Source: an uncultured Planctomycetota bacterium
GTDB taxonomy: Bacteria; Planctomycetota; JACQVV01; CAZANL01
Length of the DNA stretch: 13,403 bases
Direction: 5' to 3'
Assembly (NCBI GenBank): GCA_964566865.1
Contig: CAZMLI010000093.1
Span: 1-13,403, forward strand
The notes beneath the pieces are model-generated. The model saw only the letters and a program-made list of their open reading frames with translations, was not told the origin of the DNA and did not search any database. This document shows positions 51 through 12,796 of this stretch, piece by piece. Every line of letters begins with the position of its first letter. The stretch's first letter is position 1. The position numbers and the translations under genes were made by a program.

Positions 51-2222
51 TTACTCGAGCAGTCGCTCGCGCGCTTCGAGCAGCGCCTCCTTGGCCGCGG
101 GGTCCTTCTCGATGTCGTAGGCGGTCTTCAGCGCCTTGCGCACCGAGCCATCGCCCAGCAACCCGAGCGCGCGCGCGGCGGCCTGCCGGGTCTCGGGCAA
201 CCCGTGGCGCAGCAACTTGACCAGCGCCGGCACCGCAGAGCTGGCCTTGATCTTGACCAGGGCGAAGGCCGCCAGGCTGGCGATCTGCTTGTCCCCCATC
301 GCGGCCAGCAGCGGTTTGATCGCGCGCTTTTCCTTGCGCCGGGCGAGGTCGTAGCAGGCCTTGATGCGCACCCCGAGATCCTCGTTGCGCAGCCGCTCGA
401 CCGTCACATCGAAGGCGCTCTTGCGCTTGTTCGAGCCGCCGTTCATCATCTGCTCGATCTTCTTGTGGTGCTGCCTGACGGTCTTCTGCAGGTTGGCCAG
501 CCTGCCGCCGAGTCCCTTGCTGCCGATCTTGTAGATGCTCATCAGCCCGCTGTCGTACATGTGTGAGGTGGCCTTGGAGGCCTCCACCCCGCAGTGCGGA
601 TCCCAGAACAACTGATTGAGCCGCTTGAAGGCCGCGGCCACCGGCACCAGCACACAGTAGGCCACCGCGGCGCAGCGAAGTTCGTGGTCCTCGTTATGCA
701 GCAGCTTGACCAGCGCCTCGTCGAACGGGCGCGGCTGCTTGATGTGCGGCATGATCTTCAGCAGCGAGAGCTGCAGCGCCTTGGGACCCTCGCTCAGGTA
801 GCCGGCCAGGTTCGGCACCAGCGCGGGCGCCAGCTCGAGCCGCACCAGCGGAATCTGCAGGTGCTTTTTCAGATGCTCGACCAGCTGCAGCTTGAGCGCC
901 TTGTCGGCCTTCGGCCCCGAGACCTTGAGGATGATGGGCAGAACCCGGGCGCGCTCCTGGTCATCGAACTGGTCGGTATGATAGCCCGCCAGCAGCGCGC
1001 CGAACGAGGCCTGCCGCGTCGCGGGAGTGGCCAGCCCCTCCTCCAGCGCGTCGATCTTGTCCGGGCCGAGCTGGCTGACGATCAGAATCGCGATCAACGA
1101 GACGACCAGCGTGCCGCCACAGATCAGCGCAGCCAGCTTGTTCTTGCGCAGCTTGCGCTTCCAGCGGTCCAGCTTGCTCGGCGGGCGGGCGACGATCGGC
1201 TCGCCCAGCAGGAAGTTGCTGATGTCCATCGCCATCGCCTTGGCGCTGGGGTAGCGCGCCCCGGGCTCCTTGGCCATTGCCTTGAAGACGATCGCGACCA
1301 GATCCGGGTGCATGTCCCGCTGAAACTCGCGCGGGTCCTTGGGGTCGCTGTGCACCACCTTGTAGACCGTCTGCAGCGCGGTCTTGCCCTCGAACGGCGC
1401 GTGGCCGGTCAAGACGTTGTAGAGAATCGCGCCCAGCGAATAGATGTCGGTCGGCGGGCCGAGCTCCAGCGCCTCGGCCTGCTCGGGCGACATGTAGGAC
1501 GGCGTCCCGACGATCTGCCCCTCGATCGACAGCAGGCTGTCGGTGTTCGTATCCTTGGCCAGTCCGAAGTCGAGCAGCTTGAGCACACCGGCCTTGGTCA
1601 CGACCATGTTCGACGGCTTCAGATCGCGATGCAGGATGTTCTCGCTGTGGGCATATTCAATCGCCAGGCAGGCGTCGCGCACCAGCGCCAGCCGCTCATG
1701 AATCGTCACCACGCCGAGCTTCAGATACTCGTCGAGCGGGTGCCCGTCGACGTAGTCCATCGTGAAGAACGGGTTATCCTTGTACTCGCCATAGCCGTGC
1801 ACCGCGACGATGTTGGGATGCGACAGCTTGCCCATCGCCTTGACCTCGCGCTTGAGGCGGCTGATGAAGCGGGGGTCGTCGCGCGCCTCCGGCAGCAACA
1901 TCTTGATCGCCACCGTTCGCTCGATGCCCTCCTGGAAGCCCTTGTACACCACGCCCATGCCGCCCTTGGCAATCACCGAATCGATGCGGTACTTGCCCCA
2001 CTTGATCGGAAGTTTCTTCGCCCCGTCGCCTTGCAGCGGGGTGTCCGAGGCCGGCTGGGCCTGACGCTGCGACTTGCCCATGGCGCCGCTGACCAGCGTG
2101 ATCTCCGAGGAGATATCCGGCGGCGCGAGGTCGCTCATGTCCTCCGGGCAGACATAGCGCCGCTTGTGATCGTAGTTCTTGAAGGCGAAGGTCTTGCCAC
2201 AGGTGCTGCAGGTTAGTTTCAT
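51..2222 (-). CDS. Membrane-anchored Hanks-type Ser/Thr protein kinase (about 723 aa): N-terminal Cys3His zinc-ribbon-like motif, kinase domain, one TM helix, C-terminal HEAT/PBS-lyase-like repeat domain
   Basis: The track ORF 51..2642(-) reads through the true start. I take the start as the ATG at 2222 (MKLTCSTCGKTFAFKNYDHKRRYVCPED), preceded by AGGTGG. Kinase motifs are GKYRIDSVIAKGGMGVVYKG, VAIK, HRDLKPSNMVV, DFGLAKD and GTPSYMSPE. A TM segment LAALICGGTLVVSLIAILIVS follows a K/R-rich stretch. C-terminal repeats of the type ...AIKPLLAAMGD...AAFALVKI...VPALVKLL...AARALGLLGD are typical HEAT_2/PBS-lyase repeats. The stop is TAA at 51-53. Confidence 0.85.
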   Translation of the reverse strand: MKLTCSTCGKTFAFKNYDHKRRYVCPEDMSDLAPPDISSEITLVSGAMGKSQRQAQPASDTPLQGDGAKKLPIKWGKYRIDSVIAKGGMGVVYKGFQEGIERTVAIKMLLPEARDDPRFISRLKREVKAMGKLSHPNIVAVHGYGEYKDNPFFTMDYVDGHPLDEYLKLGVVTIHERLALVRDACLAIEYAHSENILHRDLKPSNMVVTKAGVLKLLDFGLAKDTNTDSLLSIEGQIVGTPSYMSPEQAEALELGPPTDIYSLGAILYNVLTGHAPFEGKTALQTVYKVVHSDPKDPREFQRDMHPDLVAIVFKAMAKEPGARYPSAKAMAMDISNFLLGEPIVARPPSKLDRWKRKLRKNKLAALICGGTLVVSLIAILIVSQLGPDKIDALEEGLATPATRQASFGALLAGYHTDQFDDQERARVLPIILKVSGPKADKALKLQLVEHLKKHLQIPLVRLELAPALVPNLAGYLSEGPKALQLSLLKIMPHIKQPRPFDEALVKLLHNEDHELRCAAVAYCVLVPVAAAFKRLNQLFWDPHCGVEASKATSHMYDSGLMSIYKIGSKGLGGRLANLQKTVRQHHKKIEQMMNGGSNKRKSAFDVTVERLRNEDLGVRIKACYDLARRKEKRAIKPLLAAMGDKQIASLAAFALVKIKASSAVPALVKLLRHGLPETRQAAARALGLLGDGSVRKALKTAYDIEKDPAAKEALLEARERLLE

Positions 2223-2258
2223 CCCACCTGAGAGTATAGCGTACAATCGATCCGCGCG

Positions 2259-5200
2259 ATGACCGAACCATGCCCTCTGACCGCGGCGGAGATGTCTCTG
2301 ATCGGGACATTGCGACTTCCGCCGGATGCGCTCAACCGGGCACTGGCGCTGCGCCGCGAGTATCCGGACCTGCGACGGGCACTGCTCGAGTCGGGCGCGA
2401 TCGGGCCCCACGAACTGCTCGCCGCCCTGACCGCGGCCGGCGTCGCCATCCAGATCGGCCGCTACAAGCTGCTGCGCGAGATTGCCCGCGGCGCGATGGG
2501 CACCGTGCATCTCGCGTTCGACCACGATCTCGACCGGGTCGTTGCGCTCAAGGTGCTCGACAACGTGCAGGACGTCCCCCGCTTCGAGCGCGAAGCCAGG
2601 CTGGCCGCCCGGCTGACGCACGCCCATATCATCCGGATCCACGAGGTGGGCGATTCACCCTGCCACTACATCGCGATGGCCTACATCGACGGCCCCACCC
2701 TGGAGCAGGCGATGCCGGACCTGTCGCAGGAGCGCAAGCTGGCGCTGCTGATCCAGATCGCCGAGGCGGTGGGCCATGGACACAGCAAGGGCGTGATCCA
2801 CCGCGACCTCAAGCCGGCCAACGTGCTGATCGACGAGTTCGAGCGGGCCGTGGTCACCGACTTCGGCCTGGCGCGCGACTACCAGACACAGGACCAGACC
2901 CAGCTGACCGCCACCGGCAGCATCCTGGGCACGCTGGCCTACATGTCGCCCGAGCAGGTTCGCGGAAAGACGGTGGGCCCGACCGCCGACGTCTGGGCTC
3001 TGGGCGTGATTCTCTACGAGATGTTGATGGGCGAGCGCCCGTTTCAGGTTGGCCGGGACCAGTCGATCTACGAGCAGATCCTCGAGAGCGATACCGATCC
3101 GCCCGACGCGCCGCAGGCCCTGCAGCGGATCGTCAGCAAGGCGCTCGACAAGGATCCCGCACGACGCTACGCCGACGGCGCGGCCTTCGCCAAGGCGCTC
3201 CACCAGTTTCAGCAGGGCGGAGCCGTCGAGCATCTGCCGCGCCACTGGCCGTGGATCGCTGCAACCGCGCTGCTGACATTGATCGCATTCGGCGCCTGGC
3301 GCAGGACACGCCCGACGGTTGTCAGCAAGCCGCGGGTTCAGCAGCCGGCGCCGAACGACCAACCGGACCTGGCCCTGCAACAGGAAGCAGAGCGGCGCCG
3401 GCAGGAGCTGGCCGCTTTCCGCCGACTGGTGGTCGAGACCCGCGCCAGTTTCTACGTCGGCCGCACGGACATCCGGGCTCGAATTACAGAACTGACCCGC
3501 GCGCTCAAACTCTGGGACCAGACCGACAGGCGCAAGCAGGACGACGTCTCCGCTCTCTGCGGCATCGGCTGGTACCTCACCGGCCAACCAGGCAAGGCGG
3601 AGCCCTGCCTGCTCGAGGCCCTGCGGCGAAATCCCGAAGACGGCTGGGTCAACCAGACGCTCGGCCGGATCCAGCTCGAGCGCGCGCTCGCCGCGCTGCT
3701 GACCAACGGTCAGGCCGAGGCGCTGCCGCTGACCGGCCGCTGGAGCAGCAAGGCCATGCAGTATCTCGGCCGTGGTAATCAGTGGCCGGACGAGCGCAAG
3801 ATCGAGCGCCACATCGCGCGAGCCTACCACGCGCTGGGCAGGAGCCGGTTCACCGAGCTGCGCCGGCTGTGTCAACAGGGCCTGGCGCGCCATCGCGGAC
3901 CGGGCACGGAGGAGTTCTGGTTCTTGCTTGGCTGGTTGCAGCCTTACAAGCAGCGCATCGTCTCCTGGAACAAGGCACTCGCGCTGCGCCCGCACTATCC
4001 CTGGCTCTCTTACGCCCGCGGCATGTCGCGCTTTCACGCGGGCAAGTTGCAGCTGGCGGCGCAGGACTTCGAGGCCGTCCTGCGGATGCATCCCCGCATG
4101 GCCTGGGGCTACCTCGCGCGCGGGTTGGTGCGCCAGCAGCTCGGGGACGGGCTCCGAGCACTCGATGATTACACCAGCGCGATCGCTCTCGATCACAGCC
4201 TCGTGCTGCCCTACAACAACCGCGGCATCCTCTACCACAACGCCGGTAACTTCACCGCGGCGGTGGCCGACTTCAATCAAGCGCTCAGGCGCGACCCACG
4301 CATGGCCAAGGCCTACAACAACCGGGGCCTGACCTACACCGCGATGGGCAATCCGCTGCGTGCGATCGACGACTTTACCAAGGCGGTCCGGCTGGAGCCC
4401 AGCTATGTCGGCGCCTTCCTCAATCGCGGGGTGGCCCATCGCGCCGCGCGTCAGAAAAAGCAAGCGATCGCGGACTTTGGGGAGGTGATCCGGCTCGATC
4501 CGACCGAGAAGAAGGCCCTGCTCAACCGGGGCGCGCTCTACCTCGAGCTGAATCCACGCCGGTTCAAGGCCGCGCTCGCCGATTTCGACCGCGTGCTGAA
4601 ACTCGACCCGAATTACCTCAAGGCACTCTACAACCGCGCAGTGACCAGACGCGCGATCCGGAACTACCAGGGCGCGCTGACCGACTTCAACCGCCTGATC
4701 AAGCTCGCGCCCATCGCCCATAATCTGGCCCAGCGCGGAATGCTGCTCTGCCTGAGGTTGGGTCAGCACGAGCGGGCAATCGCCGACTTCACCCGCGTGA
4801 TCGCCGCCGATCCAAACCACGTTCAGGCCTACAGCCATCGAGGCATCTCACGACGCGCCCTCAAACGCTTGAAGCCGGCGATCGCCGACTTCTCGCGCGC
4901 GATCGCGCTGAATCCCCGACACGCCAATGCCTACCACAACCGCGCGACGACGCGCACCGAGCTGGGCGATCAGATCGGCGCGATCGCCGACTACACCAGC
5001 GCGCTGGCGATCAACGACCAGCTGGCTTCGACCTACTTCGACCGGGGCACCGCCTACCGCAAGTGCAAGCAGTACCGCAAGGCCGCCGCAGACTACCGGC
5101 AGACCACCATCCTGCAGCCTCACTGGTGGAACAACTGGTTTCACTACGCCGCCCTGCTGGGCACCCTGCAGCGTTTCGAGGAAGCGCTGGCGCCCCTGCG

Positions 5201-5294
5201 CAAGGCCGAGGCGCTGGCCCCTCCCGAGGCCAGGAAGAGCGTGCGCGTATTGATCCGGATGATGCAGGATGCAATCAAGAAGCAGAAGCAGTGA
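2259..5294 (+). CDS. Membrane-anchored Hanks-type Ser/Thr protein kinase with a conserved about 60-aa N-terminal module and a C-terminal array of about 9-10 TPR repeats (1011 aa)
   Basis: ORF 2259..5294. Kinase motifs are IGRYKLLREIARGAMGTVHLA, VALK, HRDLKPANVLI, VTDFGLARD, YMSPEQ, DVWALGVILYEM and DPARRYA. The TM segment is WPWIAATALLTLIAFGAW. There are repeated 34-aa units with the signature AIADF..AI.L.P....AY.NRG. The N-terminal LTAAEMSLIGTL... is conserved with the paralog at 10151, which supports the 2259 start. Confidence 0.9.
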   Translation: MTEPCPLTAAEMSLIGTLRLPPDALNRALALRREYPDLRRALLESGAIGPHELLAALTAAGVAIQIGRYKLLREIARGAMGTVHLAFDHDLDRVVALKVLDNVQDVPRFEREARLAARLTHAHIIRIHEVGDSPCHYIAMAYIDGPTLEQAMPDLSQERKLALLIQIAEAVGHGHSKGVIHRDLKPANVLIDEFERAVVTDFGLARDYQTQDQTQLTATGSILGTLAYMSPEQVRGKTVGPTADVWALGVILYEMLMGERPFQVGRDQSIYEQILESDTDPPDAPQALQRIVSKALDKDPARRYADGAAFAKALHQFQQGGAVEHLPRHWPWIAATALLTLIAFGAWRRTRPTVVSKPRVQQPAPNDQPDLALQQEAERRRQELAAFRRLVVETRASFYVGRTDIRARITELTRALKLWDQTDRRKQDDVSALCGIGWYLTGQPGKAEPCLLEALRRNPEDGWVNQTLGRIQLERALAALLTNGQAEALPLTGRWSSKAMQYLGRGNQWPDERKIERHIARAYHALGRSRFTELRRLCQQGLARHRGPGTEEFWFLLGWLQPYKQRIVSWNKALALRPHYPWLSYARGMSRFHAGKLQLAAQDFEAVLRMHPRMAWGYLARGLVRQQLGDGLRALDDYTSAIALDHSLVLPYNNRGILYHNAGNFTAAVADFNQALRRDPRMAKAYNNRGLTYTAMGNPLRAIDDFTKAVRLEPSYVGAFLNRGVAHRAARQKKQAIADFGEVIRLDPTEKKALLNRGALYLELNPRRFKAALADFDRVLKLDPNYLKALYNRAVTRRAIRNYQGALTDFNRLIKLAPIAHNLAQRGMLLCLRLGQHERAIADFTRVIAADPNHVQAYSHRGISRRALKRLKPAIADFSRAIALNPRHANAYHNRATTRTELGDQIGAIADYTSALAINDQLASTYFDRGTAYRKCKQYRKAAADYRQTTILQPHWWNNWFHYAALLGTLQRFEEALAPLRKAEALAPPEARKSVRVLIRMMQDAIKKQKQ
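4465..4994 (+). repeat. Intragenic DNA-level repeats (GCGATCGC[C/G]GACT[T/A][C/T]) marking recently amplified TPR units
   Basis: Near-identical 15-mers occur at 4465-4479 (gcgatcgcggacttt), 4776-4790 (gcaatcgccgacttc), 4878-4892 (gcgatcgccgacttc) and 4980-4994 (gcgatcgccgactac). The last three are spaced exactly 102 bp apart, which is one 34-codon TPR. Each encodes the AIADF/AIADY motif. Confidence 0.8.
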
Positions 5295-5372
5295 ATCTCC
5301 TTGCAAGTCCGGCCCCGTCCGTTATTCTGCGCTCCTTTGCTAATTGACGCATTGCGTTAGAGGAGTCGGAAG

Positions 5373-6794
5373 ATGGGGCGAACAACTGGAATCCTGACAC
5401 TGCTGCTGCTGGTCTGCGCGCTCGGCTGCGAACCGGGCGAACTCGTCGCCCCGACGATCGATACGCATCCGACCCACAAGACCGCCAACGCCGGACAGAT
5501 CGTCACCCTGCAGGTCGCCGCCAGTGGTTCGGCCAAGCTGCGTTACCAGTGGACCCGGGGTGGCGTCGACATCCCCGGCGCCAGCTACTCGTTCTACATG
5601 AGCCCCGAGCTGACCCTGGCCGACGACGGCGCGCTCTATGCCTGCCGCGTGACCAACAAGGAAGGCAGCGTCACCAGCGGGTCCGCCGTCGTCAGCGTGC
5701 ACGACGCGGTGACGATCAGCCTGCACCGGATCAAGGCCGCCGACGGCTGGACCCTCGGCGTCAAACGCTACCTGCCCAGCGCGGCCATCGCCTCCTACGA
5801 GCCGGTGGTGATGACCCACGGCTTCCTCGAGAGCCACGACGTCTACGACCTGGACAGCACGCACAGCCTGGCCATGTCGGTCGCGCTCGCCGGCTTCGAC
5901 GTCTGGGTGCTCGACCTGCGCGGCAACGGTCTGTCGGCCGGTCCGAAGATCTCCGAGCTGCTCAGCTGGAGCTTCAACATCGACGACTTCATTCACAAGG
6001 ACGCCCCGGCCGTGATCGATCACGTGCTAACGCTGACCGGCAAGTCCCAGGTCTTCTGGGTCGGCCACAGCATGGGTGGACTGGTCGGCTACGCCTACGT
6101 CGAGACCGAGTCGAAGCACAAGATCAAGGGCCTGGTGACGCTCGCCGGCGCCGCCTGGATGGGTGGACCGGCGCAGTTCGATTCCAAGCCGGGCGGCTTC
6201 TTCATGGCGCTCGGCTCCGCGCTCGGCCCCTTCCTGCTGCCGGACTTCCCGGTGCCCGTCGGCTACGCCTGGAAAAAGGGCGCTACCGGCAAGCCCTGGG
6301 CCAAGGCCCTGCACGAATTCCTGCTGACCGACTTCGGCAAGTTCACCTGGTCCACCGAGAACATGGACGCCGCCAGAATCCAGGTCCTGATGGACCGCGC
6401 CGTCGACAATACCAGCGCCAACATGGTGCGCCAGTTCATCGCCTGGACCACCCACGAGGACATCTACACCTACGGCCCCTCGCCCCACGCGCCCCTGTTG
6501 CAAGAGTCCGACTACTACAAGAAACACGGCTTCTACAGCTACAAGGACCACCTCTCGGACATCACCACCCCCGCGCTGCTGATCGCCGGCGAGGTGGACC
6601 AGGTCGTGCCCGCGGCCAACGTGAAGAAGATCTTCGACGCCCTCTCGAGCAGCGACAAGACGTTGAAGATCATCGGCAAGAGTCACGGCCACCCGGTCGA
6701 CGTCGGACACGAGGACATCCTGGCCGGGATCCACTCGCCCGCGCTGGTCTATCCGCTCGTCGTCGAGTGGCTGCTCGCCCGCGCCTCGAAGTAA
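5373..6794 (+). CDS. Lipoprotein: N-terminal Ig-like (I-set-type) domain fused to an acid-lipase-family (gastric/lysosomal lipase-like) alpha/beta hydrolase (473 aa)
   Basis: GAGGAG lies 6 nt upstream of ATG 5373. The signal peptide MGRTTGILTLLLLVCALGC has an ALGC lipobox. The Ig-like signature is YQWTRGG...LTLADDGALYACRVTNKEGSVTSGSAVVSV. The hydrolase region PVVMTHGFLESHDVYDLDSTHSLAMSVALAGFDVWVLDLRGNGLS...FWVGHSMGGLVGYAY...LLIAGEVDQVVP...HGHPVDVGHEDILAG aligns motif-for-motif with human gastric lipase (PVVFLQHGLLAS...[21 protein letters not shown]...HYVGHSQG...AVWNGGNDLLAD...YNHLDFIW). The nucleophile elbow is GHSMG. Confidence 0.85.
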   Translation: MGRTTGILTLLLLVCALGCEPGELVAPTIDTHPTHKTANAGQIVTLQVAASGSAKLRYQWTRGGVDIPGASYSFYMSPELTLADDGALYACRVTNKEGSVTSGSAVVSVHDAVTISLHRIKAADGWTLGVKRYLPSAAIASYEPVVMTHGFLESHDVYDLDSTHSLAMSVALAGFDVWVLDLRGNGLSAGPKISELLSWSFNIDDFIHKDAPAVIDHVLTLTGKSQVFWVGHSMGGLVGYAYVETESKHKIKGLVTLAGAAWMGGPAQFDSKPGGFFMALGSALGPFLLPDFPVPVGYAWKKGATGKPWAKALHEFLLTDFGKFTWSTENMDAARIQVLMDRAVDNTSANMVRQFIAWTTHEDIYTYGPSPHAPLLQESDYYKKHGFYSYKDHLSDITTPALLIAGEVDQVVPAANVKKIFDALSSSDKTLKIIGKSHGHPVDVGHEDILAGIHSPALVYPLVVEWLLARASK

Positions 6795-6810
6795 CCGCAA
6801 ACTAAAACAA

Positions 6811-6866
6811 AGGCCAGGTCCACGCCGACAGTTCGGCAGGTGCCTGGCCCTCGTTCTACGGTTTTT
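6811..6866. terminator. Bidirectional intrinsic-terminator-like nested hairpin between the convergent lipase and amidase genes
   Basis: The outer stem GGCCAGG (6811-6817) pairs with CCTGGCC (6842-6848). It encloses a perfect inner hairpin GCCGA-CAGT-TCGGC (6823-6836). TTTTTT at 6861-6866 follows on the + strand and a T-rich tract (revcomp of ctaaaacaaa, 6801-6810) follows on the - strand. It sits between stop codons at 6792-6794 (+) and 6876-6878 (-). Confidence 0.5.
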
Positions 6867-6875
6867 TCGGGTGTC

Positions 6876-7883
6876 TTACTTGATGCGCGTCACGTATCCG
6901 CCGTGGACCCACTCGGCGCGGTGGTCGTACTGGATCAGCACCCAGGCGCCCGAGCGGGTGATCTCGCGATAGAGCTGTCCTCGGTAGACCGATCCGACGC
7001 GGTTGTTCGAGGCCACCTTGGCGGACCAGCGCGCGTTGAGCCTGGCGGCGGTGACCTTCACCGCTCGCGAGCCGTCGGCGCGGGTGTAGGCGCCCCAGAA
7101 GTAAGCGGTGCGACCGCGCCAGTAGAGACGACGCCAGGAGCCGGTCGTCTTGTCACTGACGTGCACCTTGCCACGCCTGGTCTGGCCCAGCAGCGAACCC
7201 CAGACGCCGGTCCTGACGTTCAAGCGACTGCTGGTCACGGCGCGGGTGGTGACACCGCTCGCCTTGGCGACCGGCTTGGGTGCGGCCTTGGGCGTGACTT
7301 TCGGCGCGGGTTTCGGAGCGGGGGCCGGCTTCGGCGCGGCCACCGGCGGCTTGCCGGTGCGCACGAGGTGGATGAAGTAGTCCCACTTGAAGTGGGGTCC
7401 CGGATCCCAGTGGCTCTGGTTGGGCACTTCCTTGTGGGCGATGATGCGGCTGCGGTCGATCGGGATCTTGTACTTGTCGCAGATGTAGCGGGTCAGCCTG
7501 GCCAGCGACCGGTACTGCGCCTCGGTCCAGAGGTTCTTGCCGGCGTAGCCCTCGTTTTCGATGCCGATCGAACTGGAGTTGTAAGTCCAGTTGCCGGCGT
7601 GCCAGGCGATGTCCTTCTCGCGAATCATCTGCGTGACCGCCCCGGTCTTGCTGACGATGTAGTGCGCGGACACCTTCGAGCCCGGGTTCTTGAACCAGGA
7701 GATCGCACCGGCGGCGCTGCCTTCGATGGTATGGATGATGACGTAGCGGATCGAACGGCTCGATCGCTTGGTGTAGTGCACGCCTTGCGTGTAGCTGGCC
7801 CCCGGATATTCCGAGCCGGCGGTCGCCGACAGCGGCAGGCCGATCAGGCAGGCGATGATCAAGAGTGTTGTTCTGGTCCCCAT
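6876..7883 (-). CDS. Secreted (Sec or lipoprotein signal) N-acetylmuramoyl-L-alanine amidase (Amidase_2/PGRP fold) with a Pro/Ala/Lys-rich linker and two C-terminal SH3b cell-wall-binding domains (335 aa)
   Basis: Only the C-terminal 335 codons of track ORF 6876..9887(-) are real. The ATG at 7883 is preceded by a perfect AAGGAGG (7889-7895, 5-nt spacer). The signal peptide is MGTRTTLLIIACLIGLPLSATAG. Amidase_2 motifs are YVIIHTIEGSAAG, SAHYIVSKTG, AWHAGNW, SIGIENEG and IIAHKEV. The linker is PPVAAPKPAPAPKPAPKVTPKAAPKP. Two SH3b-like units follow (RLNVRTGVWGS...WRRLYWRGRTAYFWGAY and RLNARWSAK...YRGQ...WVLIQYDHRAEWVHGGYV). Confidence 0.9.
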   Translation of the reverse strand: MGTRTTLLIIACLIGLPLSATAGSEYPGASYTQGVHYTKRSSRSIRYVIIHTIEGSAAGAISWFKNPGSKVSAHYIVSKTGAVTQMIREKDIAWHAGNWTYNSSSIGIENEGYAGKNLWTEAQYRSLARLTRYICDKYKIPIDRSRIIAHKEVPNQSHWDPGPHFKWDYFIHLVRTGKPPVAAPKPAPAPKPAPKVTPKAAPKPVAKASGVTTRAVTSSRLNVRTGVWGSLLGQTRRGKVHVSDKTTGSWRRLYWRGRTAYFWGAYTRADGSRAVKVTAARLNARWSAKVASNNRVGSVYRGQLYREITRSGAWVLIQYDHRAEWVHGGYVTRIK

Positions 7884-7916
7884 TTGAGCCTCCTTGGTTA
7901 GGATGCTCAGCCTATG

Positions 7917-7932
7917 AGCAATTGGCGTGCCC
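7917..7932 (-). promoter_or_regulatory. Sigma-54 (-24/-12) promoter oriented toward the amidase gene
   Basis: On the minus strand, the revcomp of 7917-7932 reads GGGCACGCCAATTGCT, which is GGCACG-N4-TTGCT against the consensus TGGCACG-N4-TTGCW. The GG is at 7931-7930 and the GC at 7919-7918. The predicted TSS is near 7906, giving a 23-nt leader (GCAUCCUAACCAAGGAGGCUCAA) that contains the SD before ATG 7883. Confidence 0.6.
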
Positions 7933-7949
7933 CTGCCGAAATAAATTCT

Positions 7950-7973
7950 CAAGTCATTGATACCAAATGACTT
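7950..7973. promoter_or_regulatory. IHF-like site inside an 8-bp perfect inverted repeat (AAGTCATT-N7-AATGACTT) in an AT-rich island
   Basis: The revcomp of 7950-7962 is TATCAATGACTTG, an exact fit to the IHF consensus WATCAANNNNTTR. It is centred about -50 relative to the predicted sigma-54 TSS. The inverted-repeat arms are at 7951-7958 and 7966-7973. The region 7938-7975 is conspicuously AT-rich in a 70% GC background. Confidence 0.45.
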
Positions 7974-7997
7974 GCATGGTTGACGGCCGCATGCGGC

Positions 7998-8044
7998 GGC
8001 GGAAAAACCGCCGTGGCGAGCGGGGCTGTGGCGGAAAAACCGCC
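7998..8044. repeat. Two tandem copies of a palindromic hairpin repeat GGCGG-AAAAA-CCGCC, candidate UAS/enhancer sites
   Basis: Copy 1 is at 7998-8012 and copy 2 at 8030-8044. The centres are 32 bp apart, about three helical turns. They lie about -99 and -131 relative to the predicted sigma-54 TSS, immediately upstream of the bEBP start codon. Flanking bases extend each stem (c7997/g8013; c8026-g8029 with c8045-g8048). Confidence 0.6.
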
Positions 8045-8066
8045 GCGGATTTGCTCTAATGGCCGC

Positions 8067-10150
<2,084 letters not shown>

Positions 10151-10154
<4 letters not shown>

Positions 10155-11221
10155 GCGATCTGACCGCGGCCGAGCTGGCCCTGGTCGCGACCCTGACACA
10201 AGAGAAGCTGCTCTCCCCAGCGGCATTGAGCGCGACCCTCGGCCGACGCCGCGAACTGCCGCACCTGATCGATGCGCTGCTCGAGACGCTCGCCATCTCG
10301 GCGAACGAGATCGAGGGCGCGCTCTCGCGCAGCGGCCTGTCGCTGCTACTGTGCAGCGCCTGCAGCCGCGACTGGCTGGCGCGCCTGGGCGAAGGCTGTC
10401 CCGACTGCGGCCAGGCCGGCGAGTCCCGACCGCTGCTGTCCCGCATCGGGCGCTATCGGGTGCTGCGCGAGCTGGGCCAGGGCGGCATGGGCGTGATCTA
10501 CGAGGCGCTCGACGAACGGCTCGGGCGCAACGTCGCGATCAAGTTGATTCGCGATCCAGGCAGTCGACATCGGCCGCACACTCGCGGCGCTGGAGAGATC
10601 TTTGAATCGGGCCGAAACGCTGGCGGCGCTGCCCGGCAGCCCCGAGCCCGTGCTCTGGCGCTTGATCGGCGCCGGCTGGTATCTGCTCGGCTGGACCGAG
10701 CGCGCCGAGCGGGCGCTGCGACTTGCCCCCGAGGATGCCAGGGCCCGCTACTACATGGCCCGCATCGCGCTCGACCGCGCGCGCATCGCGCTGGCCGGCG
10801 GCCCGAGGGGCCGGACCGCCCGCTCGCGCAGTCAACTGCGTCAGGCGCTGCAGCTACTGCAAAGCGCCAGCGCTGCGGCCAGTCCGCTGGACCGCCAGGT
10901 CTGCCAGGCCTGCAGGACTACCGGGGCGCGCTGGCCGACTTCAACCGCGCACTCGTGCTCAAACCCGATGGGCCGGCGGCGCTGTTCAATCGCGGGCGAA
11001 CCCACGCGATGATGGGCGATCTGACCGCGGCCGTCCGCGACTACCGCGCGCTGCTGGCGCGTCAGCCGAAGTTCGCAGGCGCCTGGCTCTCTCTGGATCG
11101 CGCGCTGGCCGCACTCGGCAAGCGCGAGGACGCGCTGGTGACATTGCGCACCGGCCGCGCGCTGGCCAAGGGGCCGCTACGCGCACAGTTCGACGCCTCG
11201 ATCGCGCATCTCAGCAAATAA
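10151..11221 (+). pseudogene. Decayed paralog of the 2259..5294 Ser/Thr kinase-TPR gene: intact N-terminal module, Cys4 zinc ribbon and kinase subdomains I-II, then two large internal deletions with frame changes, ending in about 2 TPRs and the conserved C-terminus
   Basis: The start GTG at 10151 overlaps the bEBP stop (GTGA). Frame 1 residues 1-134 align to kinase A residues 1-105 (LTAAELALVATL / IGRYRVLRELGQGGMGVIYEA / VAIKLIRD against LTAAEMSLIGTL / IGRYKLLREIARGAMGTVHLA / VALKVLDN). After about 10550, frame 1 becomes R/P/G-rich nonsense. Homology to A residues about 398-470 continues in frame 3 (10548-11012: DIGRTLAALERSL...LIGAGWYLLGW...APEDARARYYMARIALDRARIAL against DIRARITELTRAL...LCGIGWYLTGQ...NPEDGWVNQTLGRIQLERALAAL). 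Frame 1 is homologous again from about 10900 (QDYRGALADFNRALVLKPDGPAALFNRG... against NYQGALTDFNRLIKLAP... and the shared C-terminal LDRALAALGKREDALVTLR / YAALLGTLQRFEEALAPLR). The catalytic loop, DFG, APE and TM are absent. Confidence 0.55.
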
Positions 11222-11358
11222 CTGAACCTCAATCGATCGCCGGGGTTTAGACCTGGCCGTTACGCGTTCGCTCCCGACCAGCGGCGCGCCCGACCTCACC
11301 CTGTGATCGGTAGGGCGTGTTCCGTGAATGGACTCTGAAACGGAACGTCGTGTTTCGA

Positions 11359-11430
11359 CAATGGCTAGCTCAATGGAAGAGCACCGGCCCATTAATCCGG
11401 AAGTTGCAGGTTCGAATCCTGTGCCCACGC
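11359..11430 (+). ncRNA. tRNA-like element (probable degenerate tRNA/pseudo-tRNA): consensus D-arm and T-arm, imperfect acceptor and anticodon stems
   Basis: The D-arm TAGCTCAATGGAAGAGCA is at 11366-11383. The T-arm GCAGG-TTCGAAT-CCTGT is at 11406-11422 and is followed by GCCCACG-C. The putative 5' acceptor CAATGGC pairs with the 3' strand GCCCACG at only 4 of 7 positions. The anticodon arm CCGGC-CCATTAA-TCCGG has a C-U mismatch closing the stem, C rather than U at position 33, and a non-standard anticodon ATT. The order of D-arm before T-arm fixes the + strand. Confidence 0.4.
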
Positions 11431-11631
11431 TTGAAAGGCGATCGAGGGGTTTTGGTTGGAGGGGGGCGGCCGTCGCGCCTGCCCGTCCGCTGTCAGACCG
11501 TCAGTCGGACTGATCGCGGGCAGCATGCGACGGCGCCCTGCAGCATGCGGATACCGCCGGGACCAGAAGTCTGTGAGCAGTCGGGAACAGACGGCGGCAC
11601 CGGCTCAAGTAGTGCTCCGCGCTAGAGGTGT

Positions 11632-11668
11632 GGTGGACCGGTGGTCCGCCTCCCGAAGACCTTTTTTT
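11632..11668 (+). terminator. Terminator-like hairpin plus U7 tract inside the 5' leader of the SPFH gene (possible attenuator)
   Basis: The stem GGTGGACC (11632-11639) pairs with GGTCCGCC (11643-11650) with one G-U pair. TTTTTTT at 11662-11668 lies 11 nt downstream. Only 33 nt separate the T-run from ATG 11702. A small second hairpin CGCAC-cacga-GTGCG (11674-11688) abuts the SD GGGAGGG. Confidence 0.35.
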
Positions 11669-11701
11669 ACTCACGCACCACGAGTGCGGGAGGGTGAACC
11701 G

Positions 11702-12796
11702 ATGCTGATGATTCGTAAGTTCAAGGTTCGTGAGCACGAGCGGGGCTTCCTGTTCCGTGACCGCGAGTTCGTCAAGATCCTGCAGCCGGGCGTCTACCGC
11801 CACTTCGATCCGCTGTACAAGCTGCGTGTCGACCTGGTGAACGTGCGCAAGCCGTGGATCGAGCACGACGAGCTGGACGTGATCCTCAAGTCCGGACCCA
11901 ACGGCAAGGAGATGCGTGTGCTCGACCTGGCTGACGATCAGCGTGCGCTGGTCTGGATCGACGGCCGCTTCGCCGCGGTCGTCGGCCCGGGACTGTCGGC
12001 GCTGTGGACGGTTTTTCAGAGCGTCCAGGTCGAGATCGTCGACGCGCGTGAGGTGCGGTTCGAGCACGGTAGGCTGACGGCGATGCTGGACAGCCCGCTA
12101 CTGCACACGCACGAGGTCGCGCACGGCGAGGTCGCCCTGTACTTCCATGACGGCGCGTACCAGACGACCCTGAGTCCGGGTACGCACGCCTTCTGGACGG
12201 GCCAGGGCAAGGTCCTGTTGCGCAGTGTGGATCTGCGTGAGCGGATGCTGGATGTCAACGGTCAGGAGATGATGACCGCTGACAAGGTGACGTTGCGACT
12301 GAATGCGGTCGTGACCTTCAAGGTGACCGACCCGTTGCGGGCGGTGACCGAGACGGCCGACTTCACGCAGGCGCTGTACCGTGACGCGCAGCTGATCCTG
12401 CGGGCCGCGGTCGGTGCGCGCGAGCTGGATACCTTGCTCAGTGAGAAGACGGCGCTGGCGGAGGAGCTGGCCGAGGCGCTGGTCGGTCGTGCTGCGGAGT
12501 ATGGCGTTACAGTAGGACGGGTGGGAATCCGTGACGTGATCCTGCCCGGCGAGATGAAGGACCTGATGAACCAGGTCATCGAAGCTCGCAAGGCTGCGGA
12601 GGCGCAGCTGGTGACGCGTCGGGAGGAGACGGCCGCCATGCGGTCCCAGGCCAATACGGCCAAGATCCTGGAGGCCAACCCGACGCTGATGCGCCTGCGT
12701 GAGCTGGAGGTACTGGAGAAGGTTGCCGAGTTTGGCAAGCTGAACCTGGTGGTCGGAGAGAAGGGATTGACCGACCGGGTGATGAACCTGCTCTAG
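11702..12796 (+). CDS. SPFH/band-7 (stomatin/prohibitin-like) domain protein without a TM helix, with an N-terminal extension made of extra copies of the SPFH N-terminal beta-hairpin segment (364 aa)
   Basis: The SD GGGAGGG (11688-11694) precedes ATG 11702 (MLMIRKFKVREHERGFLF). The track ORF starts at TTG 11456, but that extension is R/A/G-rich junk. SPFH core: NGQEMMTADKVTLRLNAVVTFKVTDPLRAV...AQLILRAAVGARELDTLLSEKTALAEEL...YGVTVGRVGIRDVILPGEMKDLMNQVIEARKAAEAQ...AEFGKLNLVV. The N-terminal extension repeats a motif three times: GFLFRDREFVKILQPGVYRHFDP / ALVWIDGRFAAVVGPGLSALWTV / ALYFHDGAYQTTLSPGTHAFWTG. Confidence 0.85.
   Translation: MLMIRKFKVREHERGFLFRDREFVKILQPGVYRHFDPLYKLRVDLVNVRKPWIEHDELDVILKSGPNGKEMRVLDLADDQRALVWIDGRFAAVVGPGLSALWTVFQSVQVEIVDAREVRFEHGRLTAMLDSPLLHTHEVAHGEVALYFHDGAYQTTLSPGTHAFWTGQGKVLLRSVDLRERMLDVNGQEMMTADKVTLRLNAVVTFKVTDPLRAVTETADFTQALYRDAQLILRAAVGARELDTLLSEKTALAEELAEALVGRAAEYGVTVGRVGIRDVILPGEMKDLMNQVIEARKAAEAQLVTRREETAAMRSQANTAKILEANPTLMRLRELEVLEKVAEFGKLNLVVGEKGLTDRVMNLL

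Follow-up and report, generated by a model that had tools for sequence, protein, structure and literature searches.

Control of sigma-54 enhancer-binding proteins (bEBPs) by Ser/Thr kinases is known from Myxococcus xanthus, where the bEBPs concerned carry an FHA domain. There, as at the locus described here, a eukaryotic-like kinase is genetically linked to the bEBP; however, the bEBP in our window (the whole 13,403-nucleotide stretch of DNA analysed) has a GAF domain and a degenerate GGDEF-like region, and its partner kinase appears to be dead. A literature search on links between kinases and bEBPs turned up nothing specific to this bEBP-kinase family. For the kinase domain, the reference structures are PknA and PknB of M. 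tuberculosis (PDB 4x3f, 6b2q and 1mru). Strands β1-β3 of the gene remnant superpose on them with 0.7-2 Å rmsd and 44-54% identity over 34-38 residues, whereas everything from the αC helix onward, including the HRD loop, DFG motif, activation loop and C-lobe, is lacking. The locus also resembles deletion and frameshift pseudogenes of high-GC genomes in having an intact ortholog at the syntenic position, deletions that are not multiples of three, lost catalytic residues, an elevated dN and an ORF that has stayed open. It is of the same kind, unusual in that its second deletion restores the frame and the ORF reaches the ancestral stop.

The 356-codon ORF at 10151-11221 joins three parts of a single ancestral TPR Ser/Thr kinase gene across two out-of-frame deletions, and we put the probability that it is an ordinary, recently formed pseudogene of a bEBP-coupled TPR Ser/Thr kinase at about 80%. 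All of its features lie on the plus strand. It begins with a GTG (10151-10153) that shares two bases with the stop codon of the bEBP gene, TGA (10152-10154), so that 10151-10154 read GTGA. Segment A (10151-10564), read in the ORF frame, encodes a four-helix N-terminal module (aa 1-63, 10151-10339), a Cys4 motif of the form CxxC-x11-CxxC (C68, C71, C83 and C86; 10352-10408) and the kinase strands β1-β3 only (10445-10552). At junction 1 (10548-10558), homology in the ORF frame persists until about 10555-10558 and homology in the +1 frame sets in from 10548-10554. Segment B (10548-10911) corresponds to the helical, TPR-like linker that follows the transmembrane (TM) helix, and is coding in the +1 frame only (codons at 10548+3n). 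The ORF frame is regained at junction 2 (10905-10913), and Segment C (10913-11221) comprises the last ~2.5 TPR units together with the ancestral C-terminus and stop codon.

Intact counterparts of this gene are present in three Planctomycetes-like assemblies, GCA_964486115.1 (contig CAZANL010000140.1; hereafter L003), GCA_002998485.1 (L004) and ENA ERZ23491287 (L005). In L003 the gene (3897-6947) encodes a kinase of 1016 aa and stands behind a bEBP gene whose product is 77% identical to that of the window; L004 and L005 also have an intact kinase gene of this length behind the 77%-identical bEBP, with the overlap and the neighbours unchanged. Gene order in L003 and L004 is Amidase_2 (minus strand), bEBP, the 1016-aa Pkinase and TPR gene, a tRNA-like element and Band_7, and the window shares the same neighbours, with Amidase_2 upstream on the minus strand and Band_7 downstream. 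An earlier note on this DNA had taken the GTGA overlap as the sign of an ancestral bEBP-kinase operon and had proposed looking for an intact operon at the syntenic locus of relatives. Indeed, such an operon is found in all three assemblies, and the kinase start in L003 overlaps the bEBP stop by 4 bp, again as GTGA. In the L003 kinase, the Pkinase domain is complete (168 bits) and is accompanied by a TM helix and a long TPR array; the protein shares with Segment A the same N-terminal module and the same Cys4 spacing. Thus, a full-length, functional-looking homolog occupies the syntenic position in L003, L004 and L005, and in the window its ancestral frame is disrupted and its catalytic core and TM helix are lost. 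The kinase gene of L005 appears split (270 + 762 aa), which we considered as a second, independent case of decay and rejected, as the split is merely a 10-N scaffold gap.

The window contains a second kinase gene of this type, an intact paralog of 1011 aa at 2259-5294 on the plus strand, identified with Pfam, which the earlier note had regarded as the parent. In a tblastn search of 10001-11400, residues 7-100 of the paralog align with 10160-10549 in the ORF frame (35% identity, E 2e-16), residues 433 to about 500 align from 10662 onward in the +1 frame, and its TPR units align with 10910-11209, again in the ORF frame. This reproduces the mosaic, with a frame jump and return, that had been described from the sequence. 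The homology of the first ~134 codons to the 2259 kinase therefore stands; its role as the parent does not. All three segments are 51-56% identical in amino acid sequence to the L003 kinase and only 29-35% identical to the 2259 kinase, which is itself 40% identical to the L003 kinase; it is thus an older paralog, and the remnant descends from its own full-length ancestor. The paralog resembles the ancestral gene in overall architecture, in its N-terminal helical module and in its aligned Gly loop and VAIK lysine. Unlike the remnant's gene, it is not adjacent to a bEBP and does not have the Cys4 motif, which Segment A carries within a 32-aa insert relative to it.

The frame assignments rest on homology and on base composition, which agree. 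With tblastn, residues 1-138 of the L003 kinase match 10151-10564 in the ORF frame without gaps (51% identity, E 2e-32), residues 446-562 match 10548-10911 in the +1 frame (E 8e-29) and residues 908-1009 match 10913-11218 in the ORF frame (54% identity, E 4e-27). Independently of homology, the clear genes of the window have GC contents of ~0.7, 0.45 and 0.9 at codon positions 1, 2 and 3. This signature fits the ORF frame in 10151-~10545 and ~10900-11221, and the +1 frame in ~10550-~10900. Read in the ORF frame, Segment B consists of 21% Arg and of 64% Arg, Ala, Gly and Pro together. The ORF is therefore, as had been proposed, a chimera of real and out-of-frame sequence, its middle third matching the ortholog in the +1 frame only. 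A long open ORF at this locus needs no selection, because out-of-frame stops are rare in GC-rich DNA; in related kinase genes, about half of all 121-codon stretches are free of stops in the frame one base upstream of the true one. In their ancestral frames, all surviving pieces are free of stop codons and of small frameshifts, and the death of the gene would therefore be recent. At aa 275-308 the ORF does pass the Pfam thresholds of two TPR families (PF00515/PF07719), TPR_2 with 35.4 bits against a cut-off of 27 and TPR_1 with 31.3 bits against 27.8, and these units are the tail of the ancestral array.

In ortholog coordinates, deletion 1 removed ~309 aa (L003 aa ~137-445) and caused a frame shift of +1. 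Lost with it are the kinase domain beyond β3, the TM helix and the juxtamembrane region. The lost residues, with the αC glutamate, HRD catalytic loop, DFG motif, activation loop and C-lobe, are unmatched in any frame of 10151-11221, in agreement with the earlier claim that the catalytic core and TM helix had been deleted. Deletion 2 removed ~345 aa (L003 aa ~563-907), amounting to most of the TPR array, and returned the ORF to its frame. Two deletions, both out of frame, had been predicted correctly, although their sizes had been put at 290 and 300 aa. Together they amount to 1980 nt, or 3 x 660, so that the two frame shifts cancel. The window gene is consequently ~660 residues shorter than its counterpart in the L003-type operon and changes frame twice.

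Recombination between 102-bp-periodic TPR repeats had been suggested as the route for the second deletion. However, Tandem Repeats Finder detected no array of 102-bp or TPR period anywhere in the window, and deletion 2 starts ~75 aa ahead of the first canonical TPR, outside the array; only its right breakpoint falls inside the repetitive protein array. A comparison of the ortholog flanks allows a microhomology of at most a few bases at either junction. We therefore rejected repeat-mediated deletion. The same Tandem Repeats Finder analysis revealed a short 9-bp direct repeat, GCCAGGTCT/GCCAGGCCT, at junction 2 (10894-10913). Judging from these sequences, microhomology or illegitimate recombination probably generated both deletions.

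A contig from JGI 3300033050 (L002) carries the same locus in a different state. It is 99.2% identical to the window over 6299-10911 without a gap, and junction 1 is thus shared exactly, surrounded by 842 bp of perfect identity. An independent contig thus reproduces deletion 1. Beyond 10911 the contig no longer follows the window: it stays in the ancestral (+1) frame and matches L003 aa 562-650 colinearly at 74% nucleotide identity, the same level as in the rest of the remnant; it contains neither junction 2 nor deletion 2. The frame set by its start codon ends after 259 codons, compared with 356 in the window. At its left end, too, the contig diverges from the window: an HEMGH peptidase-like sequence is joined there, in frame, to the final 164 aa of the hydrolase. 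Since both ends depart from the window, the reliability of the contig at its ends is not beyond doubt. Deletion 2 either arose later or, with lower probability, reflects a misjoin. The 38 sites that differ between window and contig are clustered like recombination tracts. None falls in Segment A and five fall in Segment B, and the neighbouring genes, too, contain long stretches without a difference. Four of the five differences in Segment B are synonymous third positions of the ancestral frame (p of about 0.045 if random, for these few sites), a small hint that purifying selection recently acted on this frame in some lineage, or that recombination brought the sequence in from a lineage in which the gene is functional.

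To compare divergence across the locus, we obtained Nei-Gojobori estimates against L003. The dN values of Segments A, B (in its ancestral frame) and C are 0.42, 0.40 and 0.41, with dN/dS ratios of 0.32, 0.45 and 0.49, respectively, whereas dN is 0.16 for the bEBP, 0.21 for Band_7 and 0.21 for Amidase_2, with ratios of 0.22, 0.30 and 0.24. Thus, dN of the remnant is ~2x that of its neighbours (0.40-0.42 versus 0.16-0.21) and its dN/dS is higher (0.32-0.49 versus 0.22-0.30), over segments as short as 102-132 codons. The raised dN fits a recent relaxation of constraint, but the intact kinase family may simply evolve faster. Of the three segments, A has the lowest dN/dS, but by a margin that is not significant with samples of this small size; moreover, its protein divergence equals that of Segment B, which is certainly no longer read in its frame.

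The bEBP gene, on the other hand, is intact and constrained, since its product is 77% identical to that of the ortholog, its dN/dS is 0.22 and all of its domains are present. It is located at 8067-10154 on the plus strand; the ORF opens at 7980, and ATG 8067 is the probable start, judged from orthologs of 695-702 aa. Pfam identified a GAF domain, the degenerate GGDEF-like region, a Sigma54_activat AAA+ domain (235 bits), an AAA lid and a weak HTH_8, and no FHA domain. Its relatives include P0033, with 99% identity, and P0034, with 77% identity across 96% of its length and encoded on the contigs that have the intact operon, and, further off, P0035 (58%) and P0036 (55%) from Planctomycetes MAGs; many weaker homologs have FHA as well as GAF domains. 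Of the two readings offered earlier, the one that saw a pseudogene recording the decay of a kinase-bEBP signalling pair is therefore upheld for the coupled kinase, which has an intact syntenic ortholog, and fails for the pair: it is the kinase that seems to have decayed.

The N-terminal piece deserves separate consideration, as the other earlier reading was of a still-expressed kinase N-lobe that binds ATP or the bEBP as a decoy. Segment A does retain the Gly-rich loop GQGGMG (aa 109-114, 10475-10492), which aligns with the ortholog, the paralog and PknA/PknB, and the VAIK lysine (K131, 10541-10543). However, a whole N-lobe, as had been assumed, is not kept, only the 34-38 residues of β1-β3; against Pkinase (PF00069) the ORF scores 16.1 bits where the cut-off is 31.7, and of the 263 profile positions only 1-39 are matched. 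With no more than these 34-38 kinase residues left, an ATP-binding decoy is implausible, since nucleotide binding by the kinase fold also requires the αC glutamate, the hinge and the C-lobe. Segment A alone matched no Pfam family, zinc-ribbon families included. The AlphaFold model of the N-terminal 134 aa is confident (pLDDT 87, pTM 0.73), with helices at 6-17, 23-34, 39-46 and 51-61 (pLDDT about 87-93) and short predicted strands near the Cys4 motif (64-68, 74-77 and 89-92). The motif is zinc-ribbon-like, with predicted zinc binding. A Foldseek search of the model against the PDB aligned 34-38 residues with the kinase domains of PknA, PknB and CDK2 and found no match for the helical module. 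With aa 1-100 as the query, a word-based homolog search gave no match, and HMMER against 1.84 billion representatives gave two spurious ones, the first a protein of fn3 repeats and the second one of treble-clef zinc-finger repeats. Both searches missed the known L003 kinase too, so that the absence of matches is weak evidence for rarity. A metagenome scan with the frame-repaired remnant returned only TPR matches of 28-30% identity and did not recover the L002 contig itself.

Three further explanations of the ORF have to be set against the pseudogene. That it is a genuine small TPR protein, read in a single frame throughout, is barely credible. It is uninterrupted from its coupled start to its stop, and its C-terminal TPR units pass the Pfam thresholds; however, the ortholog matches 10548-10911 in the +1 frame only (E 8e-29), codon-position GC in 10550-10900 fits that frame and not that of the ORF, the composition is typical of out-of-frame GC-rich DNA and the nearest strain ends the ORF elsewhere. 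The earlier note had named a 356-aa protein conserved in relatives as the observation that would overturn its view. Among 5.8 billion sequences there is no similar protein, the matches being generic TPR proteins and kinases that cover 10-27% of the query. Together, +1-frame homology, codon-position GC and missing homologs effectively refute a genuine small TPR protein. Much less easily dismissed, but still unlikely, is that junction 2 is an assembly misjoin or collapse and the real genome has a longer, L002-like gene; the same is much less likely of junction 1. Such an artefact would account for the 99.2%-identical contig continuing with native sequence where the window has junction 2, and the right breakpoint within a repetitive protein array and the 9-bp direct repeat are features at which one might occur. 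Against it, there is no long DNA repeat and no TPR-period array, and in the ortholog the breakpoint flanks share at most a few bases, far below the k-mer length of assemblers. Moreover, an independent assembly has the same junction 1 within 842 bp of perfectly identical sequence, and this junction alone already kills the gene.

The remaining explanation concerns Segment A. Translation coupled to that of the bEBP might still produce its ~134 aa, which would act as a small regulator or decoy, for instance by binding the bEBP, with the out-of-frame tail tolerated. The GTGA coupling and the start codon are retained, Segment A is free of stops and indels relative to the ortholog, its dN/dS (0.32) is the lowest of the three, the AlphaFold model is confident and no window/L002 difference falls in it, although the neighbouring genes also have long identical blocks. 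A folded N-terminal product is physically conceivable on the strength of the model. Yet the kinase fold is reduced to 34-38 residues, dN in Segment A (0.42) is as high as in out-of-frame Segment B (0.40), and neither the word search nor HMMER against 1.84 billion representatives found free-standing relatives of the N-terminal module. The tail also differs between strains (356 versus 259 codons), and thus no defined product is conserved. We consider a translated N-terminal protein improbable, and the ATP- or bEBP-binding decoy of the earlier note is not borne out, given the Pkinase score, the β1-β3 remainder, a Segment A not clearly more constrained than Segment B and the missing free-standing homologs. 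It is more improbable still that the four-helix module and Cys4 motif (about 100-134 aa) are made and retained as a kinase-less partner or modulator of the bEBP; if they were, the locus would record a sensor kinase cut down to a small regulatory protein, not simple death. Under the favoured pseudogene reading, the 356-aa product most likely has no function and is most likely not translated, although the remnant may keep a residual role, the death of the gene being recent.

As a pseudogene, the ORF would have the following history. The ancestor would have been a membrane-spanning Hanks-type Ser/Thr kinase of ~1016 aa, co-transcribed and translationally coupled with the upstream bEBP, and ordered as N-terminal helical module, Cys4 zinc-ribbon-like insert, kinase domain, TM helix, helical linker and long TPR array. 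Deletion 1 would have taken away the kinase from just beyond the VAIK lysine as well as the TM helix, with a frame shift of +1, and would by itself abolish phosphotransfer and membrane anchoring. Deletion 2, seen in the window only, would then have stripped most of the TPR array and by chance restored the frame, leaving a 356-codon ORF from ancestral start to ancestral stop with its middle third out of frame. The order from the intact gene to deletion 1 and then to deletions 1 and 2 is the simplest reading of the sequences compared. One locus would thus be seen in three states (intact in a relative, with deletion 1 in a 99.2%-identical strain and with both deletions here), a stepwise decay next to a constrained bEBP. 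For annotation, the 356-aa ORF deserves a pseudogene flag and not the label of a TPR or kinase-like protein, even though gene callers will report a protein; in high-GC genomes, relics of this kind will often be hidden as clean ORFs.

Around the remnant, Pfam places an Amidase_2 gene at 6876-7838 on the minus strand and a Band_7 gene at 11456-12796. A search for the sigma-54 promoter TGGCAC-N5-TTGC with at most two mismatches gave 13 matches where 16 were expected, and the best-placed site (7918-7932, minus strand) is not conserved beyond the same species. A scan of 9900-11600 for promoters and terminators found nothing above chance. In a scan of a genome collection, the bEBP matched only a Bryobacteraceae AAA+ protein of 43% identity, which was useless for synteny. 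The conserved GTGA-coupled bEBP-kinase pair of these Planctomycetes-like genomes suggests that a Ser/Thr kinase provides input to a GAF-type sigma-54 activator, a link that is better studied in the intact relatives than in the window. In a further locus (L007), kinase genes likewise lie directly downstream of its bEBP gene.

The N-terminal part of the kinase remnant lies 5' of the kinase domain and forms a four-helix module of about 60 aa (window 10151-10339), which is common to the remnant, to the intact paralogous TPR Ser/Thr kinase beginning at 2259 (window 2259-2450) and to the intact kinase ortholog in the relative L003 (L003 3897-4090). Pfam holds no family for this module, and no relatives of it were detected in two large protein searches with residues 1-100 of the remnant (word-based, and HMMER of 1.84 billion representatives), both of which also missed the L003 kinase. 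It may represent a lineage-specific kinase accessory domain.

Between the remnant and the Band_7 gene lies a tRNA-like element (window 11363-11425, plus strand), with counterparts at the orthologous spots of L003 (7153-7226) and a second relative, L004 (6682-6755). The Rfam tRNA model matches the window copy with 41.2 bits, covering only model positions 5-66 of 71. ARAGORN called no tRNA in the window; at the orthologous spot in L003 and L004 it called tRNA-Asp(GTC), albeit with poor acceptor-stem pairing. The window copy is damaged: it has the anticodon loop CCAUUAA (AUU), an anticodon stem closed by a C.U mismatch and about 3 bp in the acceptor stem. Differences in the T stem and in the first anticodon-stem pair are compensatory, which is a sign that the structure has been kept. 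The element is either a tRNA gene in decay or a tRNA-like element that has been conserved.

Adjoining the bEBP gene, a sigma-54-like site, GGGCACGCCAATTGC (window 7918-7932, minus strand), is one base off the -24/-12 consensus and lies in the intergenic region 5' of the divergently transcribed amidase gene. The site was found in L002, a JGI 3300033050 contig, and was absent from more distant relatives; across the window, the count of sigma-54-like sites was not above chance.

Over window 6299-10911, L002 differs from the window at 38 positions, almost all of them synonymous. These are strongly clustered (for example, 7 in 8495-8531 and 12 in 8908-9122), with difference-free stretches of 0.8-1.1 kb between clusters, the distribution usually left by recombination tracts exchanged among related strains. 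L002 is 99.2% identical to the window over this range; its positions 1-349 depart from window 5950-6298. Here an unrelated sequence, HEMGH metallopeptidase-like, takes the place of the N-terminal 309 aa of the window's Ig-domain alpha/beta hydrolase, with an in-frame fusion where ...NRM meets AKALHEF; this is either structural variation or a chimera at the end of the contig.

Two plus-strand ORFs are shadows of minus-strand genes. A third Ser/Thr kinase (window 51-2642, minus strand; Pkinase 165 bits, C-terminal HEAT repeats) is oriented divergently to the 2259 kinase, and opposite it runs a 540-aa ORF (594-2216, plus strand) with no Pfam match and GC by codon position of 0.91/0.39/0.65. Similarly, the true gene at 6840-7901 is not the 353-aa plus-strand ORF occupying that interval; it is the minus-strand N-acetylmuramoyl-L-alanine amidase (6876-7838; Amidase_2, 128 bits), which is syntenic with L003-L006, relatives carrying the corresponding locus.
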